Shown piece by piece: positions 26,305-32,983 of a stretch of 64,000 nucleotides of DNA (its first letter is position 1; every line of letters starts with the position of its first letter). This DNA comes from Euryarchaeota archaeon UBA23 (lineage in GTDB: Archaea > Thermoplasmatota > Poseidoniia > Poseidoniales > Thalassarchaeaceae): the NCBI GenBank assembly GCA_002498725.1, contig DAIJ01000008.1, positions 5,598 through 69,597 on the forward strand, read 5' to 3'. The position numbers and the translations under genes were made by a program. The notes beneath the pieces are model-generated. The model saw only the letters and a list, made by a program, of their open reading frames with translations. It was not told the DNA's origin and did not search any database.

Positions 26305-28959
26305 TTACATTGTCTTATCATAACGATCGAAGATTATTCCTAATTCTTTTGTTGCTTTTACTGTTGTCCCATCTGGCATTTTTCCATCTTGTTCTAGAGC
26401 CGAAAGAGCAGCCACAACTATACTTGCTGTATCTATCTCAAAGAATCTTCTTAGAGCATCTCTTGTATCCGATCTTCCGAATCCGTCAGTACCAAGTACA
26501 ACATAACGACCGCCCACCCAACGTTGAATCATTTCCGGAATTGCAGCAATATAATCACTAGCAGCAATAGTAGTTGTTTCATCTCCAAAGCAATGACTTA
26601 CGTAAGCAATTTTAGGATCCTGTGGATTAAGGCGAGTAGCCCTCTCTGCTTCTAAACCAGCACGACGTAGTTCCCCGTAGGATGGTACAGACCAAATCTC
26701 TGCGCGTATACCACGATTTTCCAGTTCTTCAGCGGCTTCTAAAACATGAGAAAGTATCGGGCCTGATCCTAGTAATCTTATCATTGGCTCTTTTCCAGAC
26801 TTTGCTTTTTTCAATAAGTAAGCGCCCTGTATTAATCCCTCTTCACAGCCTTCTGGTTTTGGAGGTTGTTGCTCATTTTGATTGTAAAGCATAACATAGT
26901 GAAAAACGTCTTTATTTTGATTCCACATCTCATCAATTCCATGCTTGATAATAGTCGCTAATTCATATGCATATGAAGGGTCCCAAGCACGACAGTAAGG
27001 TACTGTGCTAGCATGTAATAATGAATGGCCATCCTGATGCTGTAATCCTTCACCATTCAATGTGGTTCGGCCTGCAGTTGCGCCCATCAAAAAGCCACGA
27101 GCACGCGCATCAGAAGCCTGCCATATCTGATCATTTACTCTTTGGAAACCAAACATAGAATAGAAAATATAGAATGGCAATGTTGGAGTTCCTGAATGAG
27201 AATATGAAGTTGCACTCGCAATCCAAGAAGCAATTGAATTAGCCTCTGAAATTCCCTCTTGGAGAACCTGTCCGGATTTTGATTCCTTATATTTCATAAG
27301 CATTTTATGATCTACTGGCTTGTAAAGTTGACCAAAAGAAGAATAAATACCAAACTCGGAAAATAGTGGGTCCATACCAAAAGTTCGTCCTTCATCAGGA
27401 ATTATTGGTACAATTCTATCTCCTATTTCTGACTTCATCAAACCCCTAAGTAGGCGAACAAATGCCATCGTAGTAGATACTTGCTGACCCTCAGGAGTTC
27501 CCGCATCAAATGATGCATATGTTTCTAACTTGGGGAGTTTATTGGTTATTTTTGGAGAACGTCTCTCTGGAAGATAACCACCCAATGAAATTCGTCTGGA
27601 GTGTAAATATTGCAATGCCTCTGAGTCTTCATCTAAATTATAGAAAGGATCTTCTTCAAGTTTAGAGTCGTCTACGGGTATCTCAAGTCTATCTCTATAA
27701 GAAATTAAATCTTCTAAACTCATTTTCTTCTTCTGATGAGTCGTGTTTCTCGCCTCAAATGTGTCAATACCCCAACCTTTCACTGTGTGAGCTAGAATCG
27801 CTACTGGTTTATCCGAATGTTTAGCAGCATTGTATGCTGCCCACACCTTAATTGGATCATGCCCACCACGGCGTAATTTAGAGAGTTCTTCGTCTGTAAT
27901 TCCAGCAGACATTGCTTCTAGTGATGAATGTCCTGAGAAAAGTTCCTCTCTGAAATCTGATACACTTAGAGTACTCATTCTCTGAAAATCTCCATCTGTT
28001 ATTGCTTCTAGACGATTGAGTAATGCACCATCATAATCACTAGCAAATAATCTATCCCAATTTGAATCCCATAGCACCTTGAATACATCCCATCCGGCTC
28101 CCCTGTAGAGGCCTTCAAGTTCTTGGATTATCTTTGAGTTACCTCTTACTGGACCATCCAGTCTTTGTAGATTGCAATTTACTATAGTAATTAGATTATC
28201 TAATTTCTCTCGACCGGCTACTGCGATTGCAGCAATAGCCTCTGGTTCATCCATTTCTCCATCACCCAGAAATGCAAATATCGTTGATTCGGAGGTATCA
28301 ACTAATCCCCTATTATGAATATATTTCCAAAAACGAGCATGCATTACAGCAGATAGTGGCCCAAGTCCCATTGAAACTGTTGGATACTCCCAAAATTCTG
28401 GCATCAATCGAGGATGTGGATATGAAGAAAGTCCATCGCTGAAAGCCTCTTGGCGAAAATTAGTTAATTGTTCTCTATTAAGGCGCCCTTCCAGAAATGC
28501 TCTAGCATAGATCCCCGGACTGCCATGTCCCTGTATGTACAAAGCATCGCCTATCCCATTGCTATCTTTTCCTCTAAATATATGATTAAAACCTACTTCA
28601 TATAGTGTTGAAGATGAGGCATAAGTAGAGATGTGCCCTCCAATCCCATCTATTCTTCTATTTGCATCCGAGACCATTAAAGCAGAATTCCAAAGGATTG
28701 AGTTCTGAATCTCCTTCTCAAGTTTAACATCCCCTGGATAAGGTTCCTGATGATCCCATGATATTGAGTTCACATATGGAGTTCTAGATAAAGAAGAAAT
28801 CTGAATATTAAGGTCATTAGATTCCGAAAGAAGCTCGTGTAATAGCAATCGAGCTCGTTCTATACCCTGAGAGTCTACGACGTCGCGTAATGCTTCAATC
28901 CACTCATCAGTTTCCTCTGGATCTATATCCGGAAGTCGTTGTCGGTGGTTAACGGACAT
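26305..28959 (-). CDS. aceE: Pyruvate dehydrogenase E1 component, homodimeric AceE type (ThDP-dependent)
   Basis: Full-length similarity to E. coli AceE (LPDIDPEETDEWIEALRDV...ERARLL N-terminus; about 885 aa). Start set at ATG 28959 (MSVNHRQ); the track ORF extends to 29022. Confidence 0.85.
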   Translation of the reverse strand: MSVNHRQRLPDIDPEETDEWIEALRDVVDSQGIERARLLLHELLSESNDLNIQISSLSRTPYVNSISWDHQEPYPGDVKLEKEIQNSILWNSALMVSDANRRIDGIGGHISTYASSSTLYEVGFNHIFRGKDSNGIGDALYIQGHGSPGIYARAFLEGRLNREQLTNFRQEAFSDGLSSYPHPRLMPEFWEYPTVSMGLGPLSAVMHARFWKYIHNRGLVDTSESTIFAFLGDGEMDEPEAIAAIAVAGREKLDNLITIVNCNLQRLDGPVRGNSKIIQELEGLYRGAGWDVFKVLWDSNWDRLFASDYDGALLNRLEAITDGDFQRMSTLSVSDFREELFSGHSSLEAMSAGITDEELSKLRRGGHDPIKVWAAYNAAKHSDKPVAILAHTVKGWGIDTFEARNTTHQKKKMSLEDLISYRDRLEIPVDDSKLEEDPFYNLDEDSEALQYLHSRRISLGGYLPERRSPKITNKLPKLETYASFDAGTPEGQQVSTTMAFVRLLRGLMKSEIGDRIVPIIPDEGRTFGMDPLFSEFGIYSSFGQLYKPVDHKMLMKYKESKSGQVLQEGISEANSIASWIASATSYSHSGTPTLPFYIFYSMFGFQRVNDQIWQASDARARGFLMGATAGRTTLNGEGLQHQDGHSLLHASTVPYCRAWDPSYAYELATIIKHGIDEMWNQNKDVFHYVMLYNQNEQQPPKPEGCEEGLIQGAYLLKKAKSGKEPMIRLLGSGPILSHVLEAAEELENRGIRAEIWSVPSYGELRRAGLEAERATRLNPQDPKIAYVSHCFGDETTTIAASDYIAAIPEMIQRWVGGRYVVLGTDGFGRSDTRDALRRFFEIDTASIVVAALSALEQDGKMPDGTTVKATKELGIIFDRYDKTM

Positions 28960-29022
28960 GGGAACACCTGCCCTATGGGCAGGTATCCGAATCGATCGAC
29001 TGATTTCAATGATCGCAATCAA

Positions 29023-29613
29023 TTATTCTAACTTAGGGCTCTTATTAGGGCCTACTTCAATTACATGACATTCATGTTCAGTACGAATACCAGCAACAGT
29101 AATTGAGGAGTCGCCTTGAATAGATCTACTACCGCTCCATTTTCTTACCGTGCGTTCTACAGTATGTTTACCGGGAATATTGTTAGGATCTACTTTAAGT
29201 TCAACTTGAGTGTTTTCTAGGGCCCCTAACCAGAGTAATACTGCCTCTATAGCGCGAGTCGCGGCCCCTCTACGCTGTTCTGAAGATCTGATCCAATACC
29301 CTAAATTCCAATCGGCCTCTACGGTTCTTGTTACTGTATCAAATCCAATTAACCCAAGAATTGTGGAATCCCATGGACGTAAGATCACCCAATGATGCAT
29401 ACGTCCAACACGACCCATACGTTCTGCCTCATCTAGAAATTCCTCAATCTGAGTTACGGTATCTTGCTCAGGGAGTATCCATGGCATCGCCCTACTAACC
29501 TCGGGCCAAGTTTCCTCAAATGCCTCAATTAATGGAAGGCTGTGAGTAGTATTTGCTGGCCTCAACACCATGTTTTCGTCGACTTGGATCGTCGTGGTCG
29601 CGCGACGAATCAT
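29023..29613 (-). CDS. GNAT-family N-acetyltransferase (RimJ/RimL-like)
   Basis: Acetyl-CoA-binding motif region NLGYWIRSSEQRRGAATRAIEAVLLW. Immediately upstream of, and co-directional with, aceE. Confidence 0.6.
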   Translation of the reverse strand: MIRRATTTIQVDENMVLRPANTTHSLPLIEAFEETWPEVSRAMPWILPEQDTVTQIEEFLDEAERMGRVGRMHHWVILRPWDSTILGLIGFDTVTRTVEADWNLGYWIRSSEQRRGAATRAIEAVLLWLGALENTQVELKVDPNNIPGKHTVERTVRKWSGSRSIQGDSSITVAGIRTEHECHVIEVGPNKSPKLE

Positions 29614-29678
29614 GCATCCCGCTTCTTAGATACACAGATGAGCCCTACGGTTCGAGAACCTAGATGATTGATGTAAAA

Positions 29679-30875
29679 TCAAGGGCGTAACTTTGCTTTC
29701 GCTGACTTAACGTGGGGGTCTTCTGGATATGCCTCTATCGCTTTTTCAATCATCTTATCTACTGCTGATGCCCTGCCTATCCTTTGTAAGAGGGCTCCAA
29801 CCGGATACAGAAGTTTTGTTCGTTCTCCCAAATGAGGACCTACCTCATCAATTAGCACGGTTGCTTGAGCATTCTCTTTGCGTTTTGCCGCCTCCATGGC
29901 ATCTCTTATTTTCATTACTAAATCTCTATCTTGCCATTCCTCTTGCTGAGGCCATGGCCAAAATCCATTATCATCTGAGTTTTCAATTTCTTCTTCCATA
30001 AGATGAGGAAGAGTTGGGGGGCGTGGAATTCTGGGTATGGTTGGAGGCTTTTGGGTATTATTTCCATCAAATGCAGCATCCATTGGATCTACTGGACGAG
30101 CCGCCACTGGAGGAGGAGGGGGGGCAGGCATATCTGCTCTCAATAGAGGAGGAGGGGGTTGCAATGATTCGACTTCTTTACTCTGTTCTAGATTTTCTTC
30201 TGAATTCGGAGGTTCAGATTGCGAATCTTGAACTTGAAGTCTTTCGACTATTTCCGACTTATTTCCTGATGTCGATAAACCTGCTTCTTTTGCCATCTCT
30301 ATCAATTCAGCTTTCTTCAAATTCATTAGATTAGCAGGAGGTTCTTCATTAAACACTTCTTCAAATTCAGAAGATAAAGGAGGGTCTAAAGCTTCCTCTT
30401 CAGATGTGTCATCTACTGAAAATGATTCTATTGGCTCAACTAGAGTTATCTGTTGTTTTGGTATTTCTTCCAATATCTCTTCTTCCTCCTCAGGAATCTC
30501 AAATTTGGTCACAAATGCGGGGGCATCTGCTGCAGTCAATTCGTATTCCTCATCATCCTCTTCACTCGATTCAGGATGATCAACAGTCATAGCAAATGTA
30601 GGATTAATGCTCATTTTGATGCCATCAGATTCATCATATTGTTCAACATCAATAGTTACATCTTCCATCTTGAAGGAGCCCCTTGACCAATCAATCACTT
30701 CTTCTTGATCTTCTTCGTCAGAATCTGCCAGAAGTTGATCGAATAAATCATTAGTTTGGGATTCATCTATAGTTGTAACTTGCTGAAAAGAGGCCTTTCC
30801 TAATTGATACATACATTGAGAGCATTCTGAGGACCCCTCTGGATTATTTGTCCCACATAATGGACATTCAATCAT
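29679..30875 (-). CDS. Zn-ribbon / acidic disordered / SAP-(Rho_N)-like / Pro-rich / C-terminal helical (TPR-like) protein; unknown function
   Basis: N-terminal CPLCG...CSQC zinc ribbon; about 170 aa D/E-rich low-complexity region; SAP-like motif LMNLKKAELIEMAKEAGLSTSGNKSEIVERL; PPPP tracts. Start set at ATG 30875; the track start is 30977. Confidence 0.5.
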   Translation of the reverse strand: MIECPLCGTNNPEGSSECSQCMYQLGKASFQQVTTIDESQTNDLFDQLLADSDEEDQEEVIDWSRGSFKMEDVTIDVEQYDESDGIKMSINPTFAMTVDHPESSEEDDEEYELTAADAPAFVTKFEIPEEEEEILEEIPKQQITLVEPIESFSVDDTSEEEALDPPLSSEFEEVFNEEPPANLMNLKKAELIEMAKEAGLSTSGNKSEIVERLQVQDSQSEPPNSEENLEQSKEVESLQPPPPLLRADMPAPPPPPVAARPVDPMDAAFDGNNTQKPPTIPRIPRPPTLPHLMEEEIENSDDNGFWPWPQQEEWQDRDLVMKIRDAMEAAKRKENAQATVLIDEVGPHLGERTKLLYPVGALLQRIGRASAVDKMIEKAIEAYPEDPHVKSAKAKLRP

Positions 30876-31060
30876 TGACTGCGATTCTTGCTTACGCCAA
30901 TTTTTGAACTTATCAAACACCGTGCTACCACCCACAAAGACGAGGTGCTTCGGCCGCGTTCCGCGTATAACCCTCACCCTAATTTGTAAGCAAAGTGCTC
31001 ATGGAGCAACGTCATGTGTATTTGCAAAGCGTGATGTGTAATTGATTACGGGCAGAAGAC

Positions 31061-32983
31061 ATGGGGACACCAGGAAGTACTCCTTCGAGATTTACTCGGA
31101 GTCAGGATCATCATGATGTTTTCATGCAACTAATTAAGTGGGAATTAGATGATGAATTAAGAGCGACTGAAGAACGATTGAGGAATTGGTCAAGGAAAAA
31201 ATTATCATCTCATGGATTGGCTTTATTTGATCTCCAAGCAAAACCAGACGGTTGGTTGTTTGGTCAAAGAATTGTTAAATTACAGTTAGAAAAACGAGCC
31301 AATTTGGGATCTCATAGATTTCGGCAAGGAGATATAGTAATATTAAGTAGAGGAGATCCAATTGGTGAAAAAACAATTGAAGGAATCGTTTCAGATAGAT
31401 CTCGTAATAGAATAAGAATTGTTCTATCTGAGCTTCCTAGTGGGTTAAGAAGTGGTTTTTGGAGAATGGATAGAGCTGCAAACAAAGTTGCCTTTGATAG
31501 AATGCACGATGCTCTAAATTCAATATTTGATGAAGAGGGAGGCGCACCATTACGTGAACTACTGCTAGGTCTTGTTTATGATCCAATAGCAACAGCCAGC
31601 CTAGGCCCTGAGTTAGGTGGTATGAATCGAAAACCAATGAGTAAATCGGAGGGCCTGAATGAGTCTCAGAAAATCGCTGCAAATGCAGCTACTAACCGTA
31701 GACTTACATTGATACAAGGCCCCCCTGGTACAGGAAAAACATATACTGCTGTTCGTATTTTAGAGTCTTGGGCGAGTCAAGATATCGGTACAATCCTAGC
31801 TGTTGCTGACTCAAATGTTGCTGTTGATAACTTACTCGAAGGTCTACTAGATTTAGGTGTGAGTGCAATAAGACTGGGGCAGCCAGTAAAAGTTAGAGAG
31901 TCTCTGAGAATTGCAACAGTTGACGCACAAATGGAAAATCACCCACTTAGGAGAGACTTAATTGAGCATCTAGAGTTGAATGAAAAACTTGCTCGAAGAA
32001 TACCCGGTATGAAAGGAAAAGAAAAAGGATTAGCGCATAGAGATTTAAACAGAGGATGGAAAGAAGTTCGGCGTATAGAATCACAAATGCGTGATGATAT
32101 ACTAGGTCGTGCTCAGGTTCTATGTTGTACGTGTATAGGTGTTGGACATCATCTGCTAGATGGTCGTAATTTTTCTAGGGTATTAATTGATGAAGCAACT
32201 CAGGCAACTGAACCTGCAAGTCTGGTTCCGCTTGTACGTGGTGCAAGACAAGTGGTTCTAGTAGGCGATCATAGACAATTACCTCCAACTGTAATAAGCC
32301 AACGTGCTGAAAATGGAGGGTTAAGACGATCTTTATTTGAAAGAATAATTGAAATGGGTATTGAACCAATCCTACTAGATACACAGTATAGAATGCATCC
32401 TGAAATCTCAAACTTTCCGAATAAAGCATTCTATGATGGTAATCTTATTGATGGAATTAGTGAAGATGAACGACCCAACCCTGCAGGCTTCCTTTGGAAT
32501 GATTGGGAAATTCCAATCGCGTTTTTGCCTGTTAATGGAGGAGAAATGAGTTCTCCGGATGGTTCATCCAAGGAAAACCTTGCAGAAGCGGGATGGGTTG
32601 CTAGAATTCTTGAGAATCTACTTGAGCCGGGTGATTTACTAGAGACAGATATTGGTATAATTACTCCCTATGCAGGACAGGTAAGAGCTATTCGAGATGC
32701 ATTACCTCAAAAAAGAGAGAGTATTGAAGTAAATACAGTAGATGGTTATCAAGGAAGAGAAAAAGAAGTGATAATATTCTCTTGTGTGAGATCTAATGAC
32801 GAAGGTACGGTTGGTTTTCTCTCTGATCCAAGAAGACTCAATGTGGCACTAACTCGATCAAGGCGTGGCCTCATAGTAATTGGAGACCCTGACACACTGA
32901 GGAATGACCCAGTTTGGTCTGATTGGTTGTCACACATACGCAGTCGTAACCTTGAGGCGTGGCACATTCTCGGGATGGCCTGA
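31061..32983 (+). CDS. Upf1-like SF1B helicase of the IGHMBP2/Smubp-2 (DNA2/NAM7) family
   Basis: N-terminal 1B beta-barrel region (GLALFDL...FGQRIVKL...FRQGDIVIL...GIVSDRSRNRIRIVL). LNESQKIAANAAT. Walker A GPPGTGKTYTAV; Walker B LIDEATQATEP; LVGDHRQLPP; TVDGYQGREKEVIIFSCVRSN. Confidence 0.8.
   Translation: MGTPGSTPSRFTRSQDHHDVFMQLIKWELDDELRATEERLRNWSRKKLSSHGLALFDLQAKPDGWLFGQRIVKLQLEKRANLGSHRFRQGDIVILSRGDPIGEKTIEGIVSDRSRNRIRIVLSELPSGLRSGFWRMDRAANKVAFDRMHDALNSIFDEEGGAPLRELLLGLVYDPIATASLGPELGGMNRKPMSKSEGLNESQKIAANAATNRRLTLIQGPPGTGKTYTAVRILESWASQDIGTILAVADSNVAVDNLLEGLLDLGVSAIRLGQPVKVRESLRIATVDAQMENHPLRRDLIEHLELNEKLARRIPGMKGKEKGLAHRDLNRGWKEVRRIESQMRDDILGRAQVLCCTCIGVGHHLLDGRNFSRVLIDEATQATEPASLVPLVRGARQVVLVGDHRQLPPTVISQRAENGGLRRSLFERIIEMGIEPILLDTQYRMHPEISNFPNKAFYDGNLIDGISEDERPNPAGFLWNDWEIPIAFLPVNGGEMSSPDGSSKENLAEAGWVARILENLLEPGDLLETDIGIITPYAGQVRAIRDALPQKRESIEVNTVDGYQGREKEVIIFSCVRSNDEGTVGFLSDPRRLNVALTRSRRGLIVIGDPDTLRNDPVWSDWLSHIRSRNLEAWHILGMA

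Follow-up and report, generated by a model that had tools for sequence, protein, structure and literature searches.

The minus strand of the 64,000-nt contig region analysed here (the window; Euryarchaeota archaeon UBA23, lineage Thermoplasmatota; Poseidoniia; Poseidoniales) encodes a protein with an unusual string of domains, which raises the question of what such a protein does in a marine archaeon. The initial annotation, made from the sequence alone, regarded it as a eukaryote-like scaffold associated with the nucleoid or with RNA, mainly on account of a SAP motif. The Poseidoniales belong to the most abundant archaea of the surface ocean and are uncultured, so that genes conserved across the order and lacking an assigned function are leads to the cell biology of this group. 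The observation behind the annotation proved to be real and mostly accurate, while its emphasis on the SAP motif and on a eukaryote-like character was misplaced: as set out below, the gene belongs to an order-wide family without previous description, tightly coupled to a Rim-type acetyltransferase and representing a new architecture made from known modules.

A single ORF was present at the locus on the minus strand, terminating at position 29679. The strand and the end assigned initially (29679–30875) were therefore retained, while the ATG at 30875, giving a 398-aa product, was most likely an internal codon, and the gene start was placed, on sequence comparison, at the GTG at 30920. The homologues of the family open with M(V)FDKFKxWRK approximately 15 residues ahead of the first Cys, i.e. 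upstream of ATG 30875, and the window encodes ...T-V-F-D-K-F-K-N-W-R-K with the GTG at 30920. Alignment of the upstream regions of four divergent loci revealed an invariant TTATACG block (similar to GTGAGGGTTATACG), and in the same comparison a Shine-Dalgarno-like GGGTGG/GGAGG run directly preceded the position of GTG 30920. The start was moved because the homologue N-termini, the TTATA-containing element and the Shine-Dalgarno-like run all fitted there. A longer ORF of 432 aa, starting from GTG 30977, was rejected as spurious, its opening codons coinciding with the conserved promoter-like element at 30964–30977; since this block occupies the place where the long ORF "starts", the "MRVIR..." extensions of some database entries would be spurious as well. 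The 413-aa product of the revised gene (29679–30920, with the stop codon at 29679–29681), hereafter the window protein, had a computed pI of 4.2. Scanning of the window for tRNAs and Rfam families revealed no RNA genes, and sigma-70 promoter and terminator sites were no commoner than in shuffled sequences, with a scan that was not designed for archaeal promoters. The features of the locus are listed in Table 1.

Table 1. Features of the window protein gene and its surroundings (positions in the window; residues numbered in the 413-aa form).
Feature	Position (nt)	Strand	Residues	Characteristics	Basis
Acetyltransf_3 (RimJ/RimL-type) GNAT	29023..29613	-		196 aa; acetyl-CoA motif QRRGAATRA	Pfam PF13302, 47.8 bits
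Conserved non-coding element between window protein gene and GNAT	29638..29650	-		CCGTAGGGCTCAT; one match in window	9 aligned loci
Window protein gene (revised)	29679..30920	-	1-413	GTG start 30920, 413 aa	Conserved FDKFKNWRK N-terminus; promoter-like element within longer ORF
FWPWPQQEEW motif and predicted TPR-like five-helix domain	29682..29969	-	318-413	Contains LIDEVGPHLG	
Linker 2 and proline-rich region	29970..30224	-	233-317	Semi-conserved PPPPVAARPVDPMDAAFDG and PPTIPRIPRPPTLPH	
SAP module (helix-extended-helix)	30225..30329	-	198-232	LMNLKKAELIEMAKEAGLSTSGNKSEIVERLQVQD	Pfam SAP profile, AlphaFold
Variable acidic linker 1	30330..30425	-	166-197	Length 29-93 aa among close relatives	Low conservation
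Conserved acidic motif region	30426..30785	-	46-165	Conservation 0.68-0.86	Invariant columns
Putative zinc ribbon	30786..30875	-	16-45	CPLC-x10-CSQC, then YQL	Invariant Cys; AlphaFold beta-hairpins, pLDDT 77
Basic/aromatic N-terminal helix	30876..30920	-	1-15	(M)FDKFKNWRKQESQSM	AlphaFold helix 2-12
Promoter-like element	30964..30977	-		GTGAGGGTTATACG; TTATA ~48 nt 5' of start codon	Exact match once in window
IGHMBP2/Upf1-like SF1 helicase, divergently transcribed	31061..32983	+			TIGR00376, 394.9 bits

The word-indexed search produced 383 relatives of the window protein, and in an exhaustive comparison of the HMMER profile with 1.84 billion cluster representatives 316 were matched with E ≤1e-3, 103 of them with E ≤1e-10; past approximately E 1e-10 this list consisted mostly of unrelated proteins in which the SAP segment alone was matched. 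The full-length distant members (275–580 aa, 25–35% identity) kept the N-terminus in the form of MFGRRRK, the ribbon as CPxC...CxxCYY, the acidic motifs L.DEL, MDD.TVDV.QY and DAP..V..F, and the IWPWP motif together with the TPR-like domain containing LD.LGPHLG. The family core, as delineated by these alignments, consists of the basic N-terminus, the zinc ribbon, the acidic motifs, IWPWP and the TPR-like domain. When a single genome from each GTDB species was scanned, 85 species were matched; the scan used an alignment (A2) whose pattern is specific to the close, Thalassarchaeaceae-like subfamily. All hits and species with titles below the phylum level belonged to the Poseidoniales, Thalassarchaeaceae or Marine Group II/MGIIb, the rest bearing generic archaeal names (for example, "Thermoplasmatota" or "Euryarchaeota" MAGs), and a divergent member, P0144, also came from the Poseidoniales, with a locus of the MGIIa type. 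The annotation had allowed for a lineage-specific, low-complexity sequence without conservation and for a SAP motif without profile support; the homologue survey revealed a strongly conserved protein instead, and the motif is profile-supported. NCBIfam models produced nothing above noise with the window protein (E ≥0.07), the core is not covered by any Pfam or NCBIfam model, and the titles and abstracts listed by a literature search (SAP combined with archaea, Marine Group II or zinc ribbon) contained no description of the family. Judging from the sequence comparisons, this is a real and well-conserved gene of an undescribed, scaffold-like protein family of Marine Group II archaea, the latter assignment relying on the named hits.

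The domain string proposed initially, i.e. a ribbon, an acidic region, a SAP motif, polyproline and a helical end, was right in its composition and order, and differences appeared in the character of the individual parts. At the N-terminus, Phe was at least 90% conserved in the diverse superfamily alignment (A5), with MFGRRRK in the distant relatives taking the place of the N-terminal helix sequence of the window protein. The CxxC...CxxC ribbon following it was substantiated as two CxxC knuckles on two predicted beta-hairpins (strands 16–18 and 25–27, pLDDT 77), its four Cys (C19, C22, C33 and C36) being invariant in 37 diverse members, including relatives at 25–35% identity. All Pfam zinc-ribbon profiles stayed under threshold with the window protein (best E 0.047): Zn_Ribbon_1 (PF13240) scored 13.9 bits against a gathering threshold of 25, and DZR (PF12773) 12.2 against 27.3. 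Among the relatives, the matches to models of the Zn_Ribbon_1/DZR type reached E 5e-4, still under the curated thresholds, and the family profile gave a weak match to an eL40-like ribbon among the PDB sequences. The CPxC-x10-CxxC spacing and the two beta-hairpins are shared with the Zn_Ribbon_1, DZR and eL40-type ribbons; in contrast to these small modules, a basic helix before the ribbon and acidic motifs after it are particular to the window protein family.

The following region had been described as about 170 aa of acidic disorder. This was correct in respect of composition and predicted disorder: Asp and Glu make up 33% of residues 46–197, and pLDDT in the AlphaFold model was below 50 beyond a helix at 53–70, with only a three-residue helical turn at 130–132. 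For the most part, however, the region is not an unconserved stretch of low complexity: residues 46–165 rank with the most conserved portions of the protein and reach the level of its folded domains, the mean majority fraction of residues 73–100 being 0.86, while the ribbon has 0.75 and the TPR-like domain 0.79. The motifs of this region (a LFDxLL helix, (I)DWS..F.M(E/D)DVTIDVEQY, PTFAMTVDHP, YELT..DAPxFVTKFExP and QQ..L..P) include the invariant or near-invariant patterns LFDxL, DWS..F.M.D.T.DV..Y, P..F..TV..P, Y.L...DAP.FV.KFE.P and QQ..L..P, and the acidic region is, by these alignments, motif-rich rather than compositionally conserved. Residues 46–165 had no match in Pfam, NCBIfam or PDB. 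AlphaFold modelling of the full protein, which used a shallow alignment of 42 sequences, gave no fold for residues 72–194, and this could be caused either by true disorder or by the depth of the alignment. Two readings remain for residues 46–165: short linear motifs that become ordered when a partner binds, or else a beta-rich domain of small size that an alignment of 42 sequences could not resolve. Only residues 166–197 (29–93 aa in close relatives) and 233–262 (22–62 aa) qualified as true linkers by their low conservation and length.

The polyproline tracts and the helical C-terminus were both present as annotated. In the predicted structure, the C-terminal antiparallel helix hairpins could be superposed on solved TPR domains. 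The Pfam TPR profiles did not match the window protein, and two of them matched one relative each (TPR_19 at E 2e-4 and TPR_14 at E 2.5e-3); when the family profile was compared with the PDB sequences, neither the C-terminus nor the acidic region matched anything. On the basis of the model, the C-terminus is TPR-like with approximately 2–2.5 repeats and cannot be placed in any particular TPR family.

The SAP motif itself was confirmed by the profile search, PF02037 scoring 33.8 bits against a gathering threshold of 23.9 (E 2.5e-8, aa 183–214 of the 398-aa form). AlphaFold predicted helices at 203–213 and 221–233 around an extended turn with pLDDT 84–87, and within the MGIIb clade L206, A210, L215 and K221 were invariant and G214 nearly so. 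Among the PDB sequences, the family profile matched the SAP of yeast Tho1 best. Similar to the known SAP proteins (PF02037; Tho1, SAF-A, Ku70, PIAS), the module has 35 aa with the L..L.V..L…GL…G.K..L..RL pattern, while the remainder of the window protein is unrelated to any of the eukaryotic ones. The Rho_N profile (PF07498), proposed as an alternative assignment, gave no hit in the window protein even with E values of up to 10 admitted, and, unlike the bacterial Rho, the protein has neither the RNA-binding nor the ATPase domain. Rho_N did match the Thalassarchaeum betae orthologues at the same aligned position, with the turn 2 aa longer (GLSGYSKLKKAEL versus GLSTSGNKSEI in the window protein), and because of this shared position the SAP and Rho_N labels denote one homologous insert.

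The distribution of the module within the family was, however, narrow. The Pfam scan of 37 diverse members found SAP in four, Rho_N in one and neither in 32, and a module HMM detected SAP/Rho_N in two of the 36 full-length representatives of 50%-identity clusters; in the superfamily alignment A5 the SAP columns contained 89% gaps. Most members of the close Thalassarchaeaceae clade carried the module, which was conserved there, while in the sister clusters the first linker either had no insert or contained a variant resembling Rho_N or an EF-hand-like loop, the EF-hand-like DFDGDGKVDDYEKAF loop being present in clusters P0122–P0124 and P0137. Since SAP, the Rho_N variant and the EF-hand-like loop alternate at this place, the linker is a place of gain and loss of small modules. 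In the alignments, SAP is thus an accessory module, inserted into a variable linker in the Thalassarchaeaceae (MGIIb) clade, and not a part of the family core, which sets it apart from the SAP proteins proper: here it is a clade-specific addition to an archaeal family in which most members do without it.

This bears directly on the function proposed initially. A nucleoid- or RNA-associated scaffold, whose main function would be nucleic-acid binding via SAP and whose acidic disordered region would drive condensate-like behavior, is an unlikely explanation, even with a module that is genuine, confidently folded and conserved within the MGIIb clade, and with SAP modules on other Poseidoniales proteins suggesting a commonly used tether. 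The 34 of 36 representatives without SAP/Rho_N kept all other conserved elements and the pairing with the acetyltransferase gene described below, and because the SAP-less members retain everything else, neither the core function nor the ancestral one can lie in SAP; the acidic region, motif-rich rather than conserved in its composition, also argues against such a scaffold. With 34 of the 36 representatives devoid of the module, a nucleoid or RNA scaffold role would hold, at most, as an extra property of a single subclade. The eukaryote-like character attributed to the protein is likewise weak, given that the SAP and Rho_N labels alternate at one aligned position and that other Poseidoniales proteins carry SAP. 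That a disordered linker gains, exchanges and loses modules of this type calls for caution in using SAP as a eukaryotic signature.

In each of the 92 fetched loci (nine contexts inspected by gene calls and all 92 loci by tblastn), including those of members at 25–35% identity, the gene next downstream of the family member, in the same orientation, encoded a GNAT of the Acetyltransf_3 type. The solved structures nearest to this GNAT were a putative ribosomal-protein-serine acetyltransferase (2fck) and, next, mycobacterial GNATs; its orthologues bear the JGI label of the RimJ/RimL family, and all the named ones belong to the Poseidoniales. Because its gene lies directly in front of the GNAT gene in every genome checked, the window protein most likely works with the GNAT. 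The gene order of the window was broadly kept over tens of kb among relatives, and since the Poseidoniales genomes are in general broadly syntenic, the adjacency overstates the linkage in close relatives; the pairing argument rests mainly on seven divergent loci, in which other neighbors had changed. The gap between the two genes was 42–111 nt in the loci with a whole-protein tblastn match, and in the window it measures 65 nt (29614–29678); the genes were touching in the P0144 locus, and in P0165, the most divergent locus, they overlapped by 41 nt and the helicase neighbor was lost.

The complete order in the window is a rightward MBL hydrolase, leftward aceE (PDH E1), GNAT and window protein genes, and then, divergently, an IGHMBP2-type SF1 helicase, RDD, Sua5 and MetAP. 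The initial annotation had pointed to an aceE–GNAT pair next to the gene. The position on the same strand was correct, but aceE is not a meaningful partner: in contrast to the constant GNAT, it was replaced elsewhere, by a PFOR pair in locus L003 and by a polysaccharide deacetylase following the GNAT in divergent loci. The helicase was present upstream wherever the flank was long enough, except for one locus (L024), with only a fragment in another (L089), and is thus a usual rather than universal neighbor. The neighborhood has a translation flavor, with MetAP, Sua5 and the IGHMBP2-like helicase.

An upstream gene that abuts or overlaps a GNAT gene in divergent loci, next to a helicase resembling those of defense systems (MkoA and others in PADLOC), could also be read as an antitoxin followed by a GNAT toxin, or as part of a helicase–GNAT anti-phage module. 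The GNAT toxin–antitoxin systems of the TacAT/AtaRT type have a small RHH or DUF1778 antitoxin upstream of the GNAT and a patchy, mobile distribution. In contrast, the chromosomal context here was fixed across 85 species, the family proteins are 300–580 aa long without RHH or DUF1778 antitoxin domains, neither the window protein nor the GNAT produced a PADLOC hit, and the helicase is of the IGHMBP2-family housekeeping type. With a fixed context, no PADLOC hits and no antitoxin domain, this possibility is essentially excluded.

The reading that we tentatively prefer, with a probability of roughly one in three (about 0.35), is that the window protein acts as an adaptor or tether, i.e. a docking or targeting subunit, for the downstream GNAT, with which it would interact physically. 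The protein would be a modular, largely extended adaptor, co-expressed with the GNAT, with its modules separated by flexible acidic and proline-rich linkers. Its basic N-terminus and ribbon may tether the complex to a nucleic-acid-containing structure, for example the ribosome or the nucleoid, and in the Thalassarchaeaceae the SAP module inserted in the first linker might add to this tether. The TPR-like domain, as a peptide-binding domain, together with the acidic motifs could hold the protein partners, either the enzyme or its substrate or both, and the short hydrophobic/aromatic motifs of the acidic stretch would probably fold only upon binding of a partner. To our knowledge, archaeal protein acetyltransferases are so far represented only by stand-alone enzymes; should the two proteins form a complex, they would represent a GNAT of archaea equipped with its own targeting subunit. 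Counted against the adaptor are the small and generic TPR-like domain and the GNAT sequences, in which no conserved terminal tail suited to TPR docking was found; moreover, we know of no GNAT auxiliary subunit that resembles the window protein.

The closest functional analogy for the window protein is Naa15 of the eukaryotic NatA, a TPR subunit that holds the GNAT catalytic subunit and anchors it at the ribosome; this is an analogy only, with no sequence homology detected. In contrast to the 13-repeat solenoid of Naa15, which surrounds its enzyme, the window protein has approximately 2.5 predicted repeats formed by about five helices, which is not a long solenoid, and the GNAT is of the RimJ/L type (Acetyltransf_3) and not Naa10-like, as the NatA catalytic subunit is. 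An extension of the adaptor model, which we consider unlikely, is a two-subunit protein acetyltransferase of Marine Group II, in which a dedicated zinc-ribbon/acidic/TPR-like auxiliary subunit would target a RimJ/RimL-type GNAT, as an independently arisen functional analogue of the Naa15-type arrangement, and in which the SAP module acquired in the Thalassarchaeaceae would tether acetylation to nucleoid DNA or RNA-protein particles, or redirect it there.

The architecture of the window protein as a whole, in which long acidic linkers lead up to a small TPR-like domain, also resembles a hub or anchor unrelated to the GNAT, possibly tethered to the membrane or to a cell structure by its basic/aromatic N-terminus and recruiting clients via the acidic motifs and the TPR-like domain, in the manner of the acidic polar-hub proteins HubP/FimV and of the SepF-type N-terminal membrane-targeting helices. 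The N-terminal helix of the window protein is amphipathic by eye, with V2, F3, F6 and W9 on one face; however, in the distant members the N-terminus is simply polybasic (MFGRRRK) and lacks this amphipathic character, a transmembrane segment is absent, and cell-division and motility genes were absent from the conserved neighborhood in the nine contexts examined. Such a hub would also leave the invariant GNAT pairing unexplained, and we consider it quite unlikely. The pairing (92/92), together with the nearly invariant aromatic-plus-basic character of the N-terminus, fits equally a protein that is itself a substrate or a regulator of the GNAT, acetylated at its Met-Phe/aromatic N-terminus or at lysines, or inhibiting the enzyme with its acidic region. 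The present data do not discriminate between this possibility and the adaptor model; dedicated enzyme–substrate gene pairs are, however, uncommon for the RimJ/L-type enzymes, and a substrate or regulator role is judged to be quite unlikely.

A further point against the adaptor model concerns the expression of the two genes: the MGIIb loci had an intergenic consensus CCGTAG(G/C)(G/C)CT(C/G)AT, and since the 42–111-nt gap of this clade holds such a conserved non-coding element, the GNAT could have its own regulation.

Two short non-coding elements flank the family gene, encoding the zinc-ribbon/SAP protein of the window. The upstream one, GTGAGGGTTATACG, probably includes a TATA box and is kept 5' of this gene across divergent loci of Poseidoniales. 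The GTG with which it begins gives rise to a spurious long ORF and to the false 'MRVIR...' N-termini in database entries of three family members (P0021, P0043 and P0124). The second, CCGTAG(G/C)(G/C)CT(C/G)AT, is conserved in the short spacer between the family gene and the downstream GNAT gene, which starts about 25 nt beyond it, and recurs at the aligned positions of the homologous loci L001, L003, L004, L006, L008, L018, L043 and L055. A conserved TATA-like box was not found in this spacer of the aligned loci, and the element could be a 5'-UTR or processing signal.

The surrounding genes varied between loci. The window encodes a homodimeric-type pyruvate dehydrogenase E1 (aceE, 905 aa), here in an archaeon and with neither an E2 nor an E3 gene directly around it. 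A PFOR alpha/beta pair takes its position in L003, and in the divergent loci the GNAT gene is followed by a polysaccharide deacetylase gene. In L089, the most divergent locus, a 299-aa ORF upstream of P0165 stands in place of the full IGHMBP2-like helicase and combines a weak match to the SMUBP-2 1B domain with a TMP-TENI (thiamine-phosphate synthase) domain. A few genes away from another divergent family member (L088), a 59-aa protein matching Pfam Hc1 (chlamydial histone H1-like) may be a small basic nucleoid protein.

Coordinates of the elements and genes discussed
Feature	Sequence	Position	Strand
GTGAGGGTTATACG	window	30964-30977	-
Spacer element	window	29638-29650	-
aceE	window	26305-29022	-
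299-aa ORF	L089	4974-5873	-
Hc1-matching protein	L088	14702-14881	+
SAP-membrane protein	L003	2669-3502	-
SAP-membrane protein	L086	9055-9867	-
Orthologue of SAP-membrane protein	L004	2790-3641	-

In sister clusters of the family (P0122, P0123, P0124 and P0137), the linker position occupied by SAP in the window's protein carries a predicted EF-hand-like calcium-binding loop, DFDGDGKVDDYEKAF. The family protein is the only SAP ORF of the window, which has no SAP-membrane fusion gene; among other Poseidoniales proteins outside the family, an N-terminal SAP module was found fused to membrane proteins, one arranged as SAP, acidic stretch, TM segment and ectodomain and another as SAP, CPNC..CPTC ribbon and TM segments, with the L004 orthologue being devoid of SAP. 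By analogy, these fusions are reminiscent of the eukaryotic HeH/LEM inner-nuclear-membrane tethers.
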